Source: a virus
Direction: 5' to 3' (one strand)
Length of the DNA stretch: 64,000 bases
IMG/VR virus record: IMGVR_UViG_3300035696_000014
Location: 1-64,000 of that record
The translations under genes and the position numbers were made by a program. Below are positions 31,186 to 58,392 of the stretch, piece by piece; the first letter of the stretch is position 1, and every line of letters begins with the position of its first letter. The notes beneath the pieces were generated by a model, which saw nothing but the letters and a program-made list of their open reading frames with translations, did not search any database and had not been told where the DNA came from.

Positions 31186-31204
31186 GGACGATAACTAGGC
31201 GAGT

Positions 31205-49780: not shown

Positions 49781-51223
49781 CTATTCCGCTGCGGGGGCTG
49801 GTTCGGCGGCAGTCGCCAGTTTCTGCTCGGCGATCGCCTGTTCACGCTTCAGCTCCTCCAACTTCAGGCGAATCTGCTTCTTGGACTCCTTCTCGTCGTC
49901 TTCTGACGCCTTGGTGAAGCTCATCACGTTGCCAGAGACCGCGAACTTGCTCCTGGCTGTGTCGATCAACAACGGGTAAACAAGACCGTCTCGGCCGAAA
50001 CGGTTCTTGGCCACGCACAGGCGGCCCTCTCCGGTCGCTTTCTCGTGCGTCCGCCTGCTGAGGCTGAGGACTGCGTCAGCAACGAACGCCTTGCCGTACG
50101 CCTCGCTCATGTTGTTGAGGTCAACGACGTCAGCGCTGGAGCCCTCACGGTTGGACTGCGATGCGGTCCAGCCCGGGATGTGCTTCTCCTGCAAGAACGA
50201 CCGCAGCTCTTCGTAGATCAGCTTCAGCTCGTGCCGCAACGAATCGTACTGGCGGCTGCTGCGCATGATGTCAGCGTAGTCGATGATCAACAGATCAGGA
50301 CGGAAGCCCCTGAGGTCCAGGCGCTCGATGTGAGCTCTGATGGTGTAGATGCTGGCGGTGTTGGCCGGGAACTCCTTGATCATCAGCCGGCCCAGTTCCA
50401 TGTTCTTGTAGGAACCGATGATTTGGTCCTTGCTCTCGATGACGATGTTGCTGTCGATGTCGCAGAGGTTGGAGTCGTACCGTAGGCCCACCGCAGCTTC
50501 TGACAGCTCGAAGGTGTAGTGGAGGACGTTCTTCTTCTGTCTCAGGGCTTGAGCGCCCAACCACACCAGGAAGTGGCTCTTGCCGACGCCCGTGGGGGCG
50601 ATGACAACACCGAGCTCACCGGCGCCGAGGCCGCCATTGAGGACCTCCTTTCGGTCCAACTCATCGATGCCCGTCATCACGCAGTTGCGTTGCAGCCTGG
50701 TGAAGCGTGACTCGTAGTCAGAGAAGAAGTCGTGTCCAAGTGACGGTGTGGTGCCGACACACACTGCCTTCTTGATGCCCTCGACGATCTCTTCGTACTT
50801 GCCATCGTGCATCTTCTCGGCAGCCACCAACAGCTCGGCCTTCAAGGCCTGTTTGCGGCAGAAGTCCAGTGACTTCTCCTTGACGTACTGCAGGTCGCCT
50901 GACTCAGGGTTCGCCCGCATGCGGGTCAGGTACTCGATGATCTGGTCTCGAAGGATGACGTCGGTCCCCTGCTTCAGACCGTCCTTGATGATGGTGACCA
51001 GCAGCTGGAACGACGGGAAGACCTTGTACTGCTTCGAGTAATTGAAGTAGTTCTCGGCCAAGAACTGCAGGTACTTGAGGTCGAAGTACGAGACGTCAAA
51101 CACCTCCATCATCTGCTCAGCCCACTGCCTGTCGGTCAGCAGGGCCTGCATCACCTTCTCTTGGAAGGGTTTGCCGTACTGCGCAAAGTTGGCGTCGGTA
51201 CGGACGGGAGCGTGTTCGGTCAT
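49781..51223 (-). CDS. Replicative helicase (DnaB / T4 gp41-like)
   Basis: APTGVGKS, IDYAD, TASQSNR, KNRFG. Confidence 0.9.
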   Translation of the reverse strand: MTEHAPVRTDANFAQYGKPFQEKVMQALLTDRQWAEQMMEVFDVSYFDLKYLQFLAENYFNYSKQYKVFPSFQLLVTIIKDGLKQGTDVILRDQIIEYLTRMRANPESGDLQYVKEKSLDFCRKQALKAELLVAAEKMHDGKYEEIVEGIKKAVCVGTTPSLGHDFFSDYESRFTRLQRNCVMTGIDELDRKEVLNGGLGAGELGVVIAPTGVGKSHFLVWLGAQALRQKKNVLHYTFELSEAAVGLRYDSNLCDIDSNIVIESKDQIIGSYKNMELGRLMIKEFPANTASIYTIRAHIERLDLRGFRPDLLIIDYADIMRSSRQYDSLRHELKLIYEELRSFLQEKHIPGWTASQSNREGSSADVVDLNNMSEAYGKAFVADAVLSLSRRTHEKATGEGRLCVAKNRFGRDGLVYPLLIDTARSKFAVSGNVMSFTKASEDDEKESKKQIRLKLEELKREQAIAEQKLATAAEPAPAAE

Positions 51224-52197
51224 GTGGATTCTCCGGTCTTCTGTTGCAGGTTCTCGATGCAGTGGAAGGCGTAGAAGAAGTCCTCCACATCAAAGTCACC
51301 GATACCCTCTTTCACTAGTTGCTTCACCAGCCCCATCCTATCCGCCCGGGGGACGAAGTTCTGGATCCGGTGATCGATCTGCTGTTGCTGCTGTGCTGAC
51401 AACATGCTGCCGTCGAGGTAGACCAAACGCCAGTTGCGCTTGACGTCCTCCTCCTGCTCAACGATGCGCTCGTACTTGGGCGACTCGTCGATGTGGGCGT
51501 GAGCGTAGTCAATGACCTGTTGCAACAGCACATCCTCTTCGATGCCCAGGAACGGGAACAGCTTGGCAACCGTCTTGAAACCACAACCCTTGATGCCGGG
51601 AACGTTGTCGCCAGGATCACCGCACAGCGACTTCGCCAACGCAAAGTGTTTTGCCTGGACGCGAAATTCCTCCATGACAGTCTCTTTCGTGACGAAAGTC
51701 TTCTTGTGCAAGCTGTAGACCCGGGTATGGTCATCCAGCAGCTGGTAGAGGTCCTTGTCCGACGAGACGATGATCTTCTCTTCCGCCCGCATCGGTCCGC
51801 GGCATAGGTATGCGACCAGGTCGTCTCCTTCACAGTCAGAGACGTACAACTGGCACATGGGCGCGCACCTTGTCATGTGCAGCAGCGCTTCGATCTGGTG
51901 CTTCTTGTTGTCGTCGGTGTCGGGGATGTCGTCCTCGTAGAAGCGGTTCAGCTTCTCGGGCTTGCGGTTCATCTTGTACTCACTGTAGAGACGGCGACGC
52001 TTGGTCGATCCCCCTCCCTCCCAGCAGATGTAGACTGCCTTAGGCTGTGACTCGAAGACCACCCTTCGTAGCGTCTTCAGGAAACCGATGGTGCCTCCCA
52101 TCTGGTAACCGTGCGCCGACATCGTCGGGTATGCACTGTAGCTACGAACGAAGAGGTTCATCGCGTCGACGATCAGAACCGGACGCGTATTTGACAT
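51220..52197 (-). CDS. 5'-3' exonuclease / flap endonuclease (T4 RNase H-like)
   Basis: VDAMN, YKMNR, EGDD, SSDKD, GDPGDNVPGI. Confidence 0.9.
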   Translation of the reverse strand: MSNTRPVLIVDAMNLFVRSYSAYPTMSAHGYQMGGTIGFLKTLRRVVFESQPKAVYICWEGGGSTKRRRLYSEYKMNRKPEKLNRFYEDDIPDTDDNKKHQIEALLHMTRCAPMCQLYVSDCEGDDLVAYLCRGPMRAEEKIIVSSDKDLYQLLDDHTRVYSLHKKTFVTKETVMEEFRVQAKHFALAKSLCGDPGDNVPGIKGCGFKTVAKLFPFLGIEEDVLLQQVIDYAHAHIDESPKYERIVEQEEDVKRNWRLVYLDGSMLSAQQQQQIDHRIQNFVPRADRMGLVKQLVKEGIGDFDVEDFFYAFHCIENLQQKTGEST

Positions 52198-52230
52198 GTC
52201 CTACACTGTAACCCCGGACGGGCCGAGAGT

Positions 52231-52509
52231 TCAGGCGGCAGGTTTGGGTGGATCCTTCGGCAGCAGAGCAGCGATCTCCATCACCAGTTGGGCGATGGGC
52301 TTCGCCAGATCATCTGCATCGAGGGTCACCTTTTCAGCTGGCGTCACGTGGAGCAGGTTGACCTGCAGCTTGCCGTTGTGTAGCGTCAGCGAATGAGAGT
52401 GCCTGGCTATGGGTGGGAAACGGCGGGTCAGGTGTTGCAGCAACGAGTGCGCGCCGCCCAACGATCCCGGGATGACCACCAACCGCTTGTCAGTCTCTGT
52501 CTCGTTCAT
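52231..52509 (-). CDS. Hypothetical protein
   Basis: Coupled to the upstream gene. Confidence 0.5.
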   Translation of the reverse strand: MNETETDKRLVVIPGSLGGAHSLLQHLTRRFPPIARHSHSLTLHNGKLQVNLLHVTPAEKVTLDADDLAKPIAQLVMEIAALLPKDPPKPAA

Positions 52510-52907
52510 TTCGTCACCAGCTTCACGTTGCCGAAGAAGCTCTCCCAGCAGTCACCGCTGGTGTCAAACTCCACGCACACTCGGATGTCCTCGTCGCCGA
52601 TGATGGTGTCCTTGATGACCTTGAACAGCTCAAAGTCGGCAACCATCTCTTGCGAGTGAGGGCGACGTTCGGACCGGCGCAGCTCAGCGTCTTCCTTCGT
52701 CTCCTTGCAATCACGCCAGGTCGGGCTCGTCGACAACAGCTCGCACAGCTTGGGCGACGCATGGATGTCACAGAAGCGCAGTTTCAGGTTGCGGCTGTAC
52801 GGGTTGCGCTGCTTGACAGCGTCGAACATCTCCTTGCGGCAGGCGACGATGGTGTCGACCAGCGTCTCGACCTTGGGAGAGATCTTCCAGGTGAGCTTGG
52901 AGTCCAT
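52506..52907 (-). CDS. Diverged paralogue of the neighbouring capsid-fragment protein
   Basis: W...ETLVDTI...IHASP...LL...FKVIKD...DIRV. Confidence 0.45.
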   Translation of the reverse strand: MDSKLTWKISPKVETLVDTIVACRKEMFDAVKQRNPYSRNLKLRFCDIHASPKLCELLSTSPTWRDCKETKEDAELRRSERRPHSQEMVADFELFKVIKDTIIGDEDIRVCVEFDTSGDCWESFFGNVKLVTK

Positions 52908-53329
52908 CAGTCCTCCAGGATGTGCACCCGGCCCTGCTTCATCTGGGTGCGGCCGCCGAGCTTGTATTCGATCTCGACTTGGATCTGGAAGCGGTTCTGG
53001 TCCCTGTCCTCTTCGACGATCATCTGGCAGAGCTCGCCTCGTCCGTTCTCAGTGGGCTTGTAGAGGATCGACGCTTCGAAGAAGCACAGGGTGTCAGCGT
53101 CACACCGGACGAAGACGCGGTCAGCCTTGCAGCCAGCGTCCTTCTCCAGGTGGTTCCGCATGTCGATGACGGTCTCCACCAGGGTCTCGTACCACTCACG
53201 GACGGAGCCAGTGAACTTGGGCCCGATGCTGATGCCCTCGAGGCGGATCTGTTGCCCGCTCTGCTTGTTGACGAAGACACCGGGGTTGCGGTTCCAGAAG
53301 AAGACGCGTTGCAGGTTGGTTCGTTTCAT
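52907..53329 (-). CDS. Stand-alone fragment resembling the gp23-type major capsid protein A-domain
   Basis: FFWNRNPGVFVNKQSG...PKFTGSVREWYETLVETVID...EASILYKP; ATG 53329 with GGGGAG SD. Confidence 0.65.
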   Translation of the reverse strand: MKRTNLQRVFFWNRNPGVFVNKQSGQQIRLEGISIGPKFTGSVREWYETLVETVIDMRNHLEKDAGCKADRVFVRCDADTLCFFEASILYKPTENGRGELCQMIVEEDRDQNRFQIQVEIEYKLGGRTQMKQGRVHILED

Positions 53330-53339
53330 GGTCTCCCCA

Positions 53340-53771
53340 TCATACTCCAGTCGAGCCCCATCCTCCAGCTCCACGCTTCGTCTCCGAAAGCTCGTCGGCC
53401 TCGTCGAACTCCGCCACGGTGACCGGGGCGAAGACGAACTGGCAGATGCGCTGGCCACGGACGATCTGCTGCTCGCAGTCGCTGGTGTTGTGCAGCAGGA
53501 CCTTCATCTCGCCGCGATAATCGCTATCGATGGTGCCTGGCGAATTGAGCAGGGTCACGCCCTGCTGGAGGGCGAGTCCCGACCGCGGCCTGCACTGGCA
53601 CTCGTAGCCCTCGGGTATCTCGAGAAAAAGTCCCGTGCCTACCAGGACCTTACCCCTTGGCGGGATGGTGACGTTTTCGTTGGAGCACACGTCACAGCCG
53701 GCCGATCCCGGCGTCTTGTAGACCGGGACCGGCACGTCTGAGCTTGCCCGCTTGATGCGGACGCGGATCAC
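53340..53771 (-). CDS. dut: Trimeric dUTPase
   Basis: AGCD, RSGLA, GTIDSDYRGE, RGAGGWGSTG. Confidence 0.95.
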   Translation of the reverse strand: MIRVRIKRASSDVPVPVYKTPGSAGCDVCSNENVTIPPRGKVLVGTGLFLEIPEGYECQCRPRSGLALQQGVTLLNSPGTIDSDYRGEMKVLLHNTSDCEQQIVRGQRICQFVFAPVTVAEFDEADELSETKRGAGGWGSTGV

Positions 53772-55012
53772 GCCGCTTCCTCGTCGCCGTCGTCAGCTGG
53801 GCTCTCGCCCTCGCTCACCAGCTCATCCAGGCTGGGCGGCTTCAGGGTGTAGGCAGCATCGATGATGTAGTCGACGAAGGGCTTGTACTGCACGTCCTTC
53901 ATCACCTCGTCGAAAGCGCTCTTGACGAACTTCTTCTCGACCAGCACTTCGCCCGTCTCGGCATCGCTGACAGTCAGGTCCTTCCAGGCCTGGGTGCCGT
54001 TGATGCTGAGCTCGCACTTGCGCTTGCCGTCCTTCGGGTTGATCTCGAACTCGCCGTGCACCTTGTTCTTGGAGCAGTAGTCCCGCACCTCGTCGAAGAT
54101 GTACTCGTGCTCGACGATCCCCTTGCCGAAGATGATGTCGAACTCGTACTTGCGGAACGGCGGCGCCACCTTGTTCTTCTTCACCGTCATGATGACGTGG
54201 ATGCCGATGACGTTGCCGTGCTTGTCCTTGACCTGCGTGCCGCTGGTGAGGCGGATGCGGACCGAGGCGTGGTACGGGATCGCCTTGCCACCCGGCGTCG
54301 TCTGCGGGTCACCGTGGGTGACACCGATGGCGTCACGCAGCTGGTTGATGCAGAGCAACGTCGCGTGGGTCTGGCCGATGACCCCCGTCACCTTCCGCAT
54401 GCCGCGGCTGATGATGCGGGCCTGGAGGCCGACGGTGTTGTCGTCGTACTCACCCTCGAGCTCCGCCTTAGGAGACGAAGCGGCGACCGAGTCCCAGATG
54501 ACGAGGATGGGCTTGTCCTTCGACGAAGCAATCGACTTGGCTTTCAAGACGACGTCTTCGACGATCTTGAAGACCTCCTCGGTGCAGTGAGTGTCGCAGT
54601 AGATGAAGCGCCGACCGATGTCGACCCCCATCGCCGCCAGCTTGTCGACCGGCGTCGCGTTCTCAGTGTCGATGTAGACGACCAGGCCACCCATCTTCTG
54701 GACGATGGCCGCGCACGCGTAGGCGATGTGCGACTTGCCGATCGATGGGGTACCTGCGACTTCGATGATGCGGCCCTCAGGGAACCCGCCACCCGCACAG
54801 TTGCGGATCGCGTAGTCCATCTGGATGCTGCTCGTCGGCAGCCACCGCTTCACAACCGTGGGCGCTTCGTCCTCACCCAGGTTGTACGCCACCCTCATGC
54901 CGAACTCCTTGTTGAGGTCCTTGATGAGGGTAGAGGTGAGCTCATCGAGCTCGTCCCTCTCCCTCTTCTTGGGCTTCACCTCGGAGTCGGCAGCTTTCGC
55001 CGCCTTCGCCAT
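53768..55012 (-). CDS. recA: RecA-family recombinase
   Basis: GTPSIGKS, DTENA, WDSVA, INQLR, GGKAI, KNKVAPPF. Confidence 0.92.
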   Translation of the reverse strand: MAKAAKAADSEVKPKKRERDELDELTSTLIKDLNKEFGMRVAYNLGEDEAPTVVKRWLPTSSIQMDYAIRNCAGGGFPEGRIIEVAGTPSIGKSHIAYACAAIVQKMGGLVVYIDTENATPVDKLAAMGVDIGRRFIYCDTHCTEEVFKIVEDVVLKAKSIASSKDKPILVIWDSVAASSPKAELEGEYDDNTVGLQARIISRGMRKVTGVIGQTHATLLCINQLRDAIGVTHGDPQTTPGGKAIPYHASVRIRLTSGTQVKDKHGNVIGIHVIMTVKKNKVAPPFRKYEFDIIFGKGIVEHEYIFDEVRDYCSKNKVHGEFEINPKDGKRKCELSINGTQAWKDLTVSDAETGEVLVEKKFVKSAFDEVMKDVQYKPFVDYIIDAAYTLKPPSLDELVSEGESPADDGDEEAA

Positions 55013-55020
55013 GTGCTACC

Positions 55021-55920
55021 TCAGTCTTCCTTCGTCAGCTCGGCGAAGGCCGCGTCCAGGTCCGTTGCCTTGCCCGTCGGTGCTTCCGCGTCGAGGTCTG
55101 CGTCGGCCTTCTTGCCGCCGCCACGCCCACCACGCTTCGCTTCCGCCTTGGGAGCCTCTGCCTTCGCGGCGGGCTTCACCTCGGCCTTGACCTCGTTGAC
55201 CAGCTGGTCGAGCTCGTCCTGCGGCTTGTCACCGCGTGAGGAGCCGTCGCTGTTGTCGTCGGCGCCACCGCCGGCGAGCCAGTCGTTCAGGATCTTCTCG
55301 ATCTCCTGAGGCGTCTTCTGCCGGTACATGTCGTCGATGTTCGGCACCGCCTCGAGCCACTTCTTGGCCGTCTCGGGGTCGTCGGACAGCTTGGTCGACT
55401 TCGGACGGAAGCTGACGTCGGTGTCCATGAACTGCTTGCCCTGTGCCTGGGTGATCGTCACCTTCAGGTCGAAGCCCGCCTCCGGGTCCAGGATGTCGCC
55501 GGCGTCCTCGTCGGTGAAGAAGCCGAGCAGCTTCTGGTACACCGTCTTGCCGAACGACCACACCAGGACGCCCTTGTCCTCCTGGCCGCGGACGACGATG
55601 GGCATGTACGCCCTCATCTTCGGCTGGAGCTTCTTCGCCAGCAGGCGGTCTTCCGGCTTGCCGGTGCTGTACAGCTTCCGCAGCAAGTCGTTGATGGGAT
55701 CCGGCTTGCCGAACTGCGACGGCGCCAGGATGCCCGGGTTGTTGCCGATGTAGTAGAAGCGACGCTCGACGAACGGCATGCCGTCCGGGGTCGACTTCCA
55801 GGGGAGTCCCCTGACCTTGTACTCGCCAACCGTGGGCTTCCACAGCTGGACCGATGAGTTCTTGCGCTGACCGCTCAGTTCCTGGACCCGCTTGCGGATC
55901 GCTTCGAGATCGACTGCCAT
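55021..55920 (-). CDS. Single-stranded DNA-binding protein (T4 gp32-like)
   Basis: LWKP...VRGLP, WSFGKTVY, DILDPEAGFD; acidic tail ending DLDAAFAEL. Confidence 0.8.
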   Translation of the reverse strand: MAVDLEAIRKRVQELSGQRKNSSVQLWKPTVGEYKVRGLPWKSTPDGMPFVERRFYYIGNNPGILAPSQFGKPDPINDLLRKLYSTGKPEDRLLAKKLQPKMRAYMPIVVRGQEDKGVLVWSFGKTVYQKLLGFFTDEDAGDILDPEAGFDLKVTITQAQGKQFMDTDVSFRPKSTKLSDDPETAKKWLEAVPNIDDMYRQKTPQEIEKILNDWLAGGGADDNSDGSSRGDKPQDELDQLVNEVKAEVKPAAKAEAPKAEAKRGGRGGGKKADADLDAEAPTGKATDLDAAFAELTKED

Positions 55921-55979
55921 TTCCTATTCCTCGTTCCTTTTCCTCACGGCATAGATGTCATCTGCGCCATGCAGATTGC

Positions 55980-56009
55980 ATCGTACCGTCAAGCCTGTTC
56001 TGTGTTCAA
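55980..56009 (-). promoter_or_regulatory. Promoter TTGAAC-N18-TACGAT for the ssb-recA-dut operon
   Basis: Consensus match. Confidence 0.65.
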
Positions 56010-56066
56010 GCGCAGAGCGCAAACGTCGCCACCCTGCAATCTACGTTGCAGCGGCTCCGTTGGGCA

Positions 56067-56288
56067 TCACTTTCGGGACTTGTTTTTCTTTCGGCCAAGC
56101 CTGTCAGGGTCTGAACCCGCTGGCGCCGTGTATCCCGAGATCCCGCCCACTCCGGCGAACTCATCCATCCCCTCATCCGCTTCCCCGTCACCCTCTTGCC
56201 GACCGTCCGACACAAGCTGATTTGGCACCCTTGCGAGGTGCGCCTCTACCACTTCCCGAATGTACCGCACGAGCAATCGCTTGCCCAT
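56067..56288 (-). CDS. Small probable virion protein
   Basis: MGKRLLVRYIREVVEA; GTATTTA at 56293-56299. Confidence 0.6.
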   Translation of the reverse strand: MGKRLLVRYIREVVEAHLARVPNQLVSDGRQEGDGEADEGMDEFAGVGGISGYTAPAGSDPDRLGRKKNKSRK

Positions 56289-56318
56289 GATCTAAATACA
56301 CCATCGAGGGCGGCTTGT

Positions 56319-56534
56319 CTAGGTTTTTGCCTTGGCGCAGGTGACATGATGGGCCAGCATGCGGCCGTACCCGTGGGGCAGCTTCTTCAGCTGTTCACGC
56401 CGATCCTGCGGGAACCAGTAGTCGGGGCAGGTGCACTCGACGGCGGCCTGAGCCTTGCACGCGAGACAGTTGTTGCGAGAAGCCAGAGCCTCGATGGTGT
56501 TCCAGGGCTCGCAAGTGTGTCCGCTGAAGCTCAT
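56319..56534 (-). CDS. Small Cys/His protein
   Basis: MSFSGH start coupled to the HD gene stop. Confidence 0.5.
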   Translation of the reverse strand: MSFSGHTCEPWNTIEALASRNNCLACKAQAAVECTCPDYWFPQDRREQLKKLPHGYGRMLAHHVTCAKAKT

Positions 56535-57148
56535 TCCGTCGGCCAGATGAGCCCGGGCTTCTCTTCCATCGTCGAGATGTAGTCGGCGGTCTGGACGCCG
56601 TAGACGAGGGGCCGGATCTTCAGGCAGTACTTCTTGTTCTCTTCGGGCTTGAAGCCGTCGTTGAGCTTGACGGCCAGCCACTCGTCCGTCGTCAGCTGGA
56701 TGCCGTAGTGCTGCATCACGAACAGCGAGCGGTCCGGGGTCGACAGGTACGGGAGGTCGTCGTTGTACTTGTACTCCTCGCCCATCTTGTCGGCTCGCCA
56801 CTGGTCGGTCTGGGGCAGGTAGAAGTCGTTCTCGCTGCCCTTGCCGGGCATGCCGACCTTGCCGATGTCATGGAACAGGGCCCCGATGATCATCGAGTCC
56901 TTCGGCAGCTTCCAGCCGTAGGCGTTGTTGAGGACGACGAGGTTGTTGAGCACCCGTAGCGAGTGGTCGACCAGTCCCCCGGCGAAAGCGCCGTGGTAGT
57001 CCCGCTTCGCCGACGCTGGGCACAGGCACAGCCTGTCCTCGAGATCGTCGAGCATCTCGGAAAGGGGCCGAGCACGGGTGCCCGCCTTCTCGCACAAGGA
57101 ACGAAACTTCTTCCAGTTCTGCTCGATCTGTTCCGGGGTCAACGACAT
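56531..57148 (-). CDS. HD-domain phosphohydrolase (YhaM-like HD domain)
   Basis: HGAFAGGLVDHS, HDIGK, TAD. Confidence 0.85.
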   Translation of the reverse strand: MSLTPEQIEQNWKKFRSLCEKAGTRARPLSEMLDDLEDRLCLCPASAKRDYHGAFAGGLVDHSLRVLNNLVVLNNAYGWKLPKDSMIIGALFHDIGKVGMPGKGSENDFYLPQTDQWRADKMGEEYKYNDDLPYLSTPDRSLFVMQHYGIQLTTDEWLAVKLNDGFKPEENKKYCLKIRPLVYGVQTADYISTMEEKPGLIWPTE

Positions 57149-57180
57149 GGCGAGATCCTACCGTCGCTGTGCAGCCTTGT

Positions 57181-58392
57181 TCAACACACTGGCTCGAGCC
57201 GCAGCGGGAAGTGCTGGACGTAGCCCTTGACCCTGACGTCGGTGATCTGTTGCACCGCCGGGAGCTCGTCGAGGTGGACGTCGATCAGCAGAGCATCGTG
57301 CAACGTCGCGACGGGCACCGACCTGGGCGCCGTCTGTTCTAGCCGCGTGATGACCTGGCTGAAGCCCAGCATGGTGACGTCGACACCCGTCGATTGCGCA
57401 TAGTAGTTGATGAGGACGTGGTCGAGGGGCTCGTCGACCTTGACGTGGCGCCCGTAGCGGTTCTCCAGGTGCCCCGTCGCGATGAACTGGGCCTTGATCC
57501 GCTTCAGGAGCTCGTTGGTGCGGAAGTACGCCTTCACCTGCTTGAGGAAGGTCTTCAGCTCCTTGCCCTCCATGCCGAGGTGCTTGCCCAGGACGTAGTC
57601 GTTCATCCCGTACAGCATGCTGATGACGGCACCCTTGACCACCTTGCGATCGCGTTGCAGCTCCCGGGCCATCATGCCGTAGAGGTCGGTCTCCTCACAC
57701 TTGCGGCCGTACTCGTAGAGGAGGATCCTGACCTCCAATGCTGCAAAGTCCAGAGCGAAGACCTTGCCTTGGTCTCCGTGCCGGCTGGCGATGACGTCAC
57801 GGTGTTCCCTCTTCAACGTCAGGATCTGCGGACCTGCATCGACGATGAGCCGCCCGGTCAGGGTGCCGAAGCGGTTGTAACAGATCGCGCTCGCGAAGCC
57901 GTCATCGTCAGGTTGGAACGACTTGACGGCGGGCACGTTGCCCTCCCCAGCCGCCACCAGCTCCCGCCAGCGTCCCCCGTTGACAGCCATCGGCTTCAGG
58001 CTGCGGAAGACGTAGTTTCCGGGCACCCAGACGGTCTTGTAGTAATCCAGCGGCGCCTTCTCCATGGCTGCCAGGCTACCGGAGATGATGTTTTTGGCGA
58101 AGGCACGGTGCTCCACCCCGGGCATCACCTTGGCCCAGGGCACCGGCTGGTTCCCAAGCGAACCTGACATCAGGGACATCGCCTGGGTGAACCTGGGCGG
58201 GGGCTCGGTGGGCAGGGCGATGTTGCCGAGCCGGAACGCGGTGTCGAGGCACCAGTCGCTGCTGTCCTTGCAGTGGCCGCTGAGCCACCAGGTGTCGGGC
58301 GGGACCTCAGTCACCCACTCGTATGTCCCATCAACGGCGACGAAGTGCCTGTCGGTTCCAAGGACTCGCTGGTCGATGCACAGGCGTGGCAC
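57181..58392 (-). CDS. Minimal family A DNA polymerase-fold protein
   Basis: TLTGRL, DFAALEVR (motif A), RKVVK...LYG (motif B), NYYAQST, LHDA (motif C); GTG start after TACGAT. Confidence 0.75.
   Translation of the reverse strand: MPRLCIDQRVLGTDRHFVAVDGTYEWVTEVPPDTWWLSGHCKDSSDWCLDTAFRLGNIALPTEPPPRFTQAMSLMSGSLGNQPVPWAKVMPGVEHRAFAKNIISGSLAAMEKAPLDYYKTVWVPGNYVFRSLKPMAVNGGRWRELVAAGEGNVPAVKSFQPDDDGFASAICYNRFGTLTGRLIVDAGPQILTLKREHRDVIASRHGDQGKVFALDFAALEVRILLYEYGRKCEETDLYGMMARELQRDRKVVKGAVISMLYGMNDYVLGKHLGMEGKELKTFLKQVKAYFRTNELLKRIKAQFIATGHLENRYGRHVKVDEPLDHVLINYYAQSTGVDVTMLGFSQVITRLEQTAPRSVPVATLHDALLIDVHLDELPAVQQITDVRVKGYVQHFPLRLEPVC

Follow-up and report, generated by a model that had tools for sequence, protein, structure and literature searches.

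The two subjects of this study are short, adjacent open reading frames (ORFs), ORF A (140 aa; 52907-53329, minus strand) and ORF B (133 aa; 52506-52907, minus strand), in the first 64 kb of the viral record IMGVR_UViG_3300035696_000014 (hereafter G000), the stretch of 64,000 nucleotides that we call the window. We are nearly certain that both ORFs encode A-domain proteins of the gp23-type, HK97-fold major capsid protein (MCP). A is an A-type protein that keeps the MCP motif, and B, which belongs to the same family, is derived and has lost the N-terminal MCP motif. An initial annotation had placed two capsid A-domain fragments here, and both ORFs were recovered, with the strings quoted for A present in its translation. 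As to their function, the possibility we rank first, tentatively, is that of a blocker or decoy acting by mimicry of the MCP A-domain. The source record is 127,191 bp long (61.7% G+C; CheckV completeness 34%), and it derives from a large T4-related phage, as a close relative (G001) has a complete genome of 369,475 bp with terminal repeats.

The phage's own gp23-type MCP (640 aa; PF07068 at 220 bits) is encoded outside the window (G000:C1:103509-105431, minus strand). BLASTP aligned residues 11-99 of A with residues 453-541 of this protein (E 1e-25), with 43 of 90 positions identical (48%). When a profile built from 15 members of the A family was compared with the MCP by hhalign, the match extended over residues 4-134 of A and 450-590 of the MCP (probability 99.9, E 8.7e-32). 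The close likeness of A to the A-domain of gp23-type capsid proteins, which the initial annotation had put forward, is thus borne out. According to the hhalign alignment, A lacks ~16 residues of the MCP loop that follows LYKP, as well as MCP residues 591-631, and many family members end in the MCP's own C-terminal ...LDMNII. From the alignment and this shared end, the family corresponds to the last 190 residues of the MCP minus the segment 591-631 and the post-LYKP loop. The Pfam hidden Markov model of PF07068 itself matched neither A nor B, no family was assigned to either in Pfam or PHROGs (B gave only two PHROG rows, at E 0.09-0.15), and the A-family profile had no match among PDB sequences at E up to 1.

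The AlphaFold2 model of A, folded alone, was confident (pLDDT, the predicted local distance difference test, 88.7; pTM, the predicted template modelling score, 0.83). Foldseek searches of the PDB gave capsids in the top rows, at weak E-values (best 3.5e-3 for A and 2.3e-2 for B), and we therefore used VIA-align for a clear structural match. The best match of A was to residues 352-527 of the phage S6 capsid (Z 11.7, root-mean-square deviation [rmsd] 2.6, 112 residues aligned), and T4 gp23 was matched over residues 312-520 (Z 10.9, rmsd 3.0, 115 residues aligned). A further phage capsid A-domain followed at Z 10.6, and T4 gp24 at Z 9.2 (residues 220-421; 1YUE). The structural matches listed, 50 for A and 50 for B, were all phage capsid, encapsulin or cage shells, and they covered the C-terminal A-domain part.

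The homology of B is indirect. BLASTP of B against the phage's own MCP was not significant, and hhalign found no real match when an alignment of 12 B sequences was compared with the MCP sequence alone. A search of 1.84 billion representatives recovered 44 relatives of B at E ≤ 0.001, 42 of them 79-171 aa long and none of MCP length. The resulting 45-sequence alignment matched the A family in hhalign (probability 97, E 1.1e-10), collinearly to the C-terminus. Individual proteins bridge the two types: the B-type P0145 and the A-type P0049 share 42% identity over 117 aa (E 6e-25), while P0182, which was found by the B profile, keeps the YWS...ETLVETI N-terminus and matches P0049 at E 3e-31. The A-family profile in turn finds B in the genome (E 0.0018). 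The AlphaFold2 model of B (pLDDT 92.4) matched only HK97-type shells, over the A-domain, with a best VIA-align Z of 10.2; T4 gp23 (314-520) was found at Z 8.7 and rmsd 4.6, and gp24 at Z 7.2. Profile and structure comparison, which the initial annotation had proposed as a check, thus ties both ORFs to HK97-type shells including T4 gp23, and A also to the phage's own MCP. The same annotation took B for a degenerate copy of the motif in A. The relationship holds, through the chain of families and the fold, but the strand-loop segment YWxRxPGxFVNK...FTGSVREWY is entirely absent from B, which keeps only ETLV of the motif. As a separate observation, 23 stretches of P0144 (1651 aa) match positions 43-69 of the B profile (E 1.1e-27), and either this protein is composed of B-like repeats, or the match is an artefact of low complexity.

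Neither protein amounts to a complete HK97 subunit. A aligns only with MCP residues 450-590, and both A and B are without the N-arm/propeptide, the E-loop/insertion domain and its linkers, the spine helix and the P-domain. Being single domains that align with only part of the MCP and gp23, they are domain-level paralogues and not capsid subunits, and the absence of parts that a shell subunit requires suggests that they are assembly-incompetent. With gp23-type MCPs (PF07068; T4 gp23, PDB 7VRT/5VF3/6UZC) they have in common homologous sequence, the fold, the interface helix and, in many members, the C-terminal strand. Unlike those MCPs, they consist of one domain, from which the P-domain excursion (MCP 591-631) and the post-LYKP loop have been excised, and their genes lie in a replication block and not in the head module. 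T4 gp24 (PDB 1YUE) is likewise a phage-encoded MCP paralogue that arose by duplication. However, gp24 is a full-length HK97-fold subunit that forms the pentamers of the shell, whereas A and B, a third its size, match only the A-domain part of 1YUE (220-421) and can take no position in the lattice.

A and B belong to a large family, carried by uncultured large phages of the T4-like kind. A profile search of short proteins (67-284 aa) returned 546 members at E ≤ 0.001 among 2168 candidates, and size classes were counted on the best 120 of the 546. Among these 120, 68 proteins are ≤170 aa long and 20 are 232-251 aa long, and no PF07068 hit is precomputed for any protein of these two classes; the other 32 (196-277 aa) carry PF07068. 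The last class probably represents cut MCP genes, because most of its entries are on contigs of 0.7-3 kb. The other 88 of the best 120 look free-standing, and several free-standing members are found on contigs of 136-351 kb. The members of 232-251 aa that we fetched have ~95 extra N-terminal residues with no alignment to the MCP. Like A and B, other family members that were searched gave nothing at threshold in Pfam or PHROGs. Genes of the 232-aa class (~95 novel N-terminal residues plus the A-domain) occur at L075 5734-6432, L092 4704-5402 and L189 4872-5387, where ORF inspection, the only means applied here, places UDP-glucose-dehydrogenase-like and transferase-like genes next to them, so that the family has a second conserved setting. 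A 123-aa member in yet a third type of location (L070 8605-8976) lies ~2 kb downstream of the MCP gene of its phage.

A quick maximum-likelihood tree was computed from 95 rows and 152 columns, the rows being the C-terminal regions of 43 MCPs, 43 short A-domain proteins (minis) and nine extended proteins; many of its branches are long and the MCPs were sampled by likeness to A, so that the deeper order is unsure. The 43 MCP regions formed one tight clade (support 99 in the SH-aLRT, an approximate likelihood ratio test), within which the phage's own MCP and that of G001 are 99% identical over the region used. All minis fell outside the MCP clade on long branches, with A in a group of five (98). 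From these positions, the minis appear to be old paralogues that have evolved much faster than the MCP, and a recent origin of A and B as copies of the phage's own MCP was rejected on the same grounds.

The ratio of nonsynonymous to synonymous substitutions (dN/dS) was estimated pairwise against relatives by the Nei-Gojobori method; as dS was high (0.4-1.7), the ratios are rough, and it is the comparison with the neighbouring genes that matters. The values were 0.42 and 0.48 for A and 0.21-0.29 for B, against 0.19-0.41 for the downstream ORF C, 0.21-0.41 for dut, 0.28-0.42 for gp32, 0.15-0.38 for recA and 0.05-0.11 for exo. The reading frames of A and B are intact in every relative found. The initial annotation had named dN/dS as a way of recognising neutral decay, and what it reveals is purifying selection on both ORFs. 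A and B are selected genes, not debris.

One part of A has stayed close to the MCP in sequence. Codons 11-56 (53162-53299, minus strand), which encode a strand, a long loop and the first half of a helix (FWNRNPGVFVNK...GPKFTGSVREWYETLVETVID), are near-identical to the MCP. We compared residues conserved in 43 minis (invariant or ≥90%) with those conserved in 27 MCPs, taking the register from the BLASTP alignment of A with the MCP. Up to residue 56, the conserved positions of the minis are W12, R14, P16, G17, F19, V20, G25, G36, F39, G41, E45, W46, Y47, E48, T49, L50, E52, T53 and D56, and every one of them corresponds to an MCP-invariant position (nearly invariant for G25/G467). The next invariant run of the MCP (I504, H505, R506, K507, T508, L509, R510, G511, S512, A513, N514 and F515) varies in the minis. 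Since B-type proteins lack the patch and are nonetheless predicted to fold, the patch appears to be unnecessary for the fold, and its retention in A-type proteins would then point to binding rather than folding.

A second element lies at codons 77-92 of A (53054-53101, minus strand), where a short helix (residues 78-86 of the model) precedes LYKP (DADTLCFFEASILYKP). With the register counted by hand, D79 and A86 of this helix align with N381 and A387 of T4 gp23. N381 and A387 are described as gp24-bypass sites on a short helix at the interface between neighbouring subunits within a capsomer (PMC9546572). The same source puts the gp31-bypass sites in the P-domain and not in the A-domain (PMC9546572), and a link of A and B to gp31/GroEL was rejected on this basis. 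The proteins also differ in cysteine content: the MCP has none among its 640 residues, A has four and B six. In the family consensus the interface helix has a cysteine on either side (CILECSVL); the corresponding MCP sequence is TILEASVL. We take the contrast as a soft hint of an intracellular, non-virion life.

The genes around A and B are those of DNA replication. On the minus strand, a tight block begins with a gp32-like single-stranded-DNA-binding protein (55021-55920; PF08804, E 8.8e-12) and continues with a RecA-like protein (53768-55012; PF00154, E 1e-60) and a dUTPase, dut (53340-53771; PF00692, E 2.5e-30), the upstream neighbour of A; B is followed by ORF C (92 aa; 52231-52509) and then by a 5'-3' exonuclease of the RNase H/FEN-like type, exo (51220-52197; PF02739, E 9.9e-29). 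The order ssb(gp32)-recA-dut-A-B given in the initial annotation is therefore confirmed by Pfam. Pfam assigned a family-A DNA polymerase and an HD protein to the upstream side, together with the gp32-like protein, RecA and dUTPase, and the exonuclease, a DnaB-like helicase, a ribonucleotide reductase and ThyX to the downstream side, so that A and B are located outside the head module. From gp32 to C, each junction is a gap or overlap of ≤10 bases. A GGGGAG Shine-Dalgarno-like site (53333-53338) sits 5' of the ATG of A, next to the dut stop (53340-53342), and a GGAGGA Shine-Dalgarno site (52911-52916) within the end of A precedes the ATG of B. The stop of A and the start of B overlap as TGATG, with one base common to TGA and ATG, and C overlaps B by four bases (ATGA). 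The G+C content at third codon positions is 0.87 in A and 0.85 in B, equal to that of the neighbouring genes, i.e. native codon usage. Judging from this arrangement, A and B share a transcript with the replication genes gp32-recA-dut...exo-dnaB and are coupled to them in translation. ORF C matched no Pfam or PHROG family, and its Atlas model was of low confidence (pLDDT 0.45) and gave no usable fold lead.

The gene order polA-HD-gp32-recA-dut-[...]-exo-dnaB is kept in eight related loci (RecA identity 67-91%). A mini gene adjoins dut in all eight, and precedes exo in the seven that reach exo. What fills the space between dut and exo differs: the window and L085 have A-B-C; L003 has A and then the contig end; L083, L084 and L087 have B-C, 6-13 bases after dut, without A; L086 (= G001) has an unrelated 144-aa ORF (L086 7577-8011), followed by B-C; and L166 has a single full-length mini of 173 aa and no C. 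The E-values of the L166 mini are 1e-24 against the MCP, 4e-22 against A and 2e-4 against B, the last over 118 collinear residues. No A-type gene was found by the A-family profile anywhere in the complete 369,475-bp genome of G001, and the 144-aa ORF in the slot of L086 matched nothing in Pfam or PHROGs. C accompanies B in all five related loci that hold B and is absent from L166. A is thus an accessory addition in a variable slot, whereas B is present in each of those five loci, and the unrelated ORF in the slot of A marks the dut-B junction as a swap site for accessory genes. The dut-exo slot seems to have long been occupied by a mini A-domain gene, and B looks like a trimmed descendant of it.

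The initial annotation held that A and B are under an early-type promoter and not under a TANTTA box. This was not upheld: a consensus scan of 51000-57500 found no sigma-70-type promoter, and the nearest box upstream of A and B, TATTTA at 56293-56298 (minus strand), stands upstream of the whole operon, four nucleotides before a 73-aa ORF directly upstream of gp32 (56067-56288, minus strand). Record G000 contains 28 TA[C/G/T]TTA boxes on the minus strand and four on the plus strand. Of the minus-strand boxes, 26 have an ORF start within 43 nt, and in nine of these cases the start is only 2-6 nt away; should the box act as a -10-like element of late promoters, the messages would be leaderless or nearly so. 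Examples in the window are the minus-strand boxes at 56298, 47179, 33133, 31197, 30957, 25981, 12419, 6392 and 2574, and among the 26 is that of the phage's own MCP, whose start follows a TACTTA box at a distance of 19 nt. Since there is no minus-strand box between 47179 and 56298, A and B have none of their own. Late read-through into the operon is possible, given the box at 56298 and that no terminator was seen on the minus strand. That A and B are expressed early is suggested only by the company of replication genes. ORFs behind boxes carry leaders such as MRVRLGEIRRLLGEEL and MNEKQLRALVREEVE, whereas A starts with MKRTNLQRVFFW and B with MDSKLTWKISPK, and by eye neither bears a capsid-targeting leader. 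The boxed ORFs at 56067-56288 and near 31197, 30957, 12419 and 6392 have similar amphipathic leaders (MGKRLLVRYIREVVEAHL, VRTTLGELRRILLEEI, MRLNLGELQAVVKRTL, MNEKQLRALVREEVE and VVKPLTEADVLRVMREEW), and a conserved counterpart of the 73-aa ORF that precedes gp32 is present in L166 (MSNLLVRYIKLALAEAHL).

If the blocker or decoy role is genuine, A and B would be cytoplasmic, non-virion proteins that mimic the A-domain of the MCP, an assumption to which the lack of a box of their own, the lack of the leader found on boxed ORFs and the richness in cysteine lend some colour. Because A has kept the strand-loop-helix patch of the MCP and the capsomer-interface helix, it could tie up a partner whose usual target is the A-domain exposed on unassembled MCP. 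The most likely partner would be a host sensor of the A-domain face, for which A would compete as a blocker or decoy, already in place before MCP synthesis or supplied in the course of it. B, having lost the patch and kept the fold, might serve a partner that reads shape, or a different, older role in the locus. A 2026 preprint reports binding of Avs7, Avs8 and Avs10 to the face of the MCP A-domain that forms pentons and hexons (10.64898/2026.01.04.697583), and according to a 2026 editorial several defence systems are triggered by MCPs and by a vertex protein (PMC13728456). The binding of the A-domain by Avs7/8/10 makes a decoy or blocker plausible by analogy, and is not evidence for A and B themselves. 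It is attractive to speculate that the immunogenic axial domain was cut from the capsid protein, with selection holding the shared patch in register with the MCP, and that this self-derived mimic of the trigger pre-occupies Avs7/8/10-like receptors, A for a sensor reading sequence and B for one reading shape; in this specific form the proposal is doubtful.

Several points weigh against a blocker or decoy. A mimic would trigger, instead of block, any sensor that fires on binding, and something other than the binding of a partner could explain why the patch is conserved. The MCP-identical patch is missing from B, although B is the better conserved protein of the two, and a TANTTA box stands upstream of the operon. 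The constancy of the mini gene beside dut (eight of eight loci) looks more like a housekeeping role than an arms-race gene, and the family classes in sugar-gene islands are unexplained by a purely decoy role.

The possibility we place next, unlikely though it deserves to be taken seriously, accommodates the last two points: an exapted A-domain would be an adaptor or regulatory subunit for neighbouring enzymes, those of nucleotide and DNA metabolism here and sugar enzymes in the 232-aa class. The stable locus, with the mini beside dut throughout and before exo wherever exo is reached, fits this explanation, as do the extended proteins of L075, L092 and L189, whose genes have UDP-glucose-dehydrogenase-like and transferase-like neighbours (ORF inspection only), and the fact that B diverged from the MCP sequence and is still under selection. 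Nevertheless, it leaves unexplained the persistence of MCP-invariant residues in A-type members over long divergence, and we found in these proteins no enzyme-like motif and no known-family match (Pfam, PHROGs). Ranked behind it, and rather improbable in our view, is a capsomer cap or assembly modulator, i.e. a free A-domain that attaches to MCP monomers or incomplete rings at their A-domain face and either delays or poisons shell assembly (the phage's own until the right time, or that of a co-infecting relative) or masks the interface. A does keep the MCP-identical patch and the helix aligned to the T4 intracapsomer sites N381/A387, and with the ~16-residue post-LYKP loop and MCP 591-631 missing, it could accept contacts but not propagate them. 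However, given how abundantly the MCP is produced, encoding a stoichiometric cap in a replication operon seems costly; A is dispensable in the complete close relative G001; the MCPs of the clade are so alike (99% between the phage's own and that of G001) that a weapon would also strike its owner; and B lacks the shared patch.

Two further explanations are far less probable. A and B would be minor virion components, i.e. vertex, decoration or internal head proteins, only against long odds, in spite of the precedent of the vertex protein gp24, also derived from capsid protein, and of the family member 2 kb downstream of an MCP gene in L070. Both genes stand outside the structural module with no TANTTA box of their own, both proteins are without the N-terminal leader of boxed ORFs, rich in cysteine where the MCP has none, and far too short for a capsomer position, and A is absent from a complete relative; on the box and leader pattern and the cysteine content, a head-internal or vertex protein was rejected. 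Least credible of all are decaying remnants of an MCP duplication. A and B are partial copies of a longer gene, as such remnants would be, but their frames are intact in every relative found and dN/dS is well below 1, equal to that of the neighbouring enzymes, for which reason pseudogene remnants were also rejected. The boundaries moreover follow the domain precisely: the P-domain excursion is missing, and many members retain the ...LDMNII C-terminus of the MCP. The confident autonomous predicted folds, the Shine-Dalgarno sites and the native codon usage all speak against decay.

Full-length MCP paralogues such as gp24 and exaptations of the HK97 fold such as encapsulins are already known, and capsid proteins belong to the principal cues for phage detection in bacteria, with several sensors reading the A-domain. 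The phage protein DSAD1 occupies the site of the sensor DSR2 that receives a structural-protein trigger. DSAD1 is not known to derive from the trigger, unlike the candidate blocker proposed here, which would reproduce a domain excised from the trigger itself. In the Lit/EF-Tu exclusion of T4, the Gol peptide is located near residues 93-122 of gp23, far from the region copied here (~312-520), and the system is not known to include a free-standing phage gene. Lit/Gol, together with CapRel (PMC13728456), indicates that parts of the MCP are readable by host defences. The closest parallel is Avs7/8/10, since the face read by those sensors lies in the domain reproduced by A and B; the accessible part of that report treats full MCPs as triggers and describes no phage-encoded A-domain copy or inhibitor (10.64898/2026.01.04.697583). 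Full-text literature searches yielded no description of free-standing A-domain genes, and no such family was found in Pfam or PHROGs. The present locus stands out for its tandem arrangement of A and B, for a trimmed B type connected by bridging sequences, for the variability of the slot that holds A, and for the conserved placement between dut and exo. A large, selected, A-domain-only family outside the head module would represent a class of counter-defence proteins, a control of shell assembly, or reuse of this fold, the oldest among viruses, for a cellular-type job, and each of the three, if true, would be new biology for the HK97 fold. In the first case, the anti-defence protein would derive from the trigger itself. 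Although no relative has been cultured, A and B are small and predicted to fold alone, and hence directly testable.

The GenBank phage collection gave no match to 51000-56000 of the window by megablast, or to A, B, P0088 and P0183 by tblastn; the family and the MCP motif were likewise not found in it, and for the MCP it contained only distant cultured relatives, all below 60% identity. In BFVD, the model of A had weak Foldseek matches to small uncharacterised proteins from jumbo phages in culture, for example a 125-aa protein of Erwinia phage vB_EamM_Y3 (A0A2H4IBH4, E 3e-3) and a 138-aa protein of Pseudomonas phage Noxifer (A0A1Y0SV83, E 4.8e-2, rmsd 3.8). On these model comparisons, free-standing A-domain-like proteins may also be present in culturable jumbo phages.

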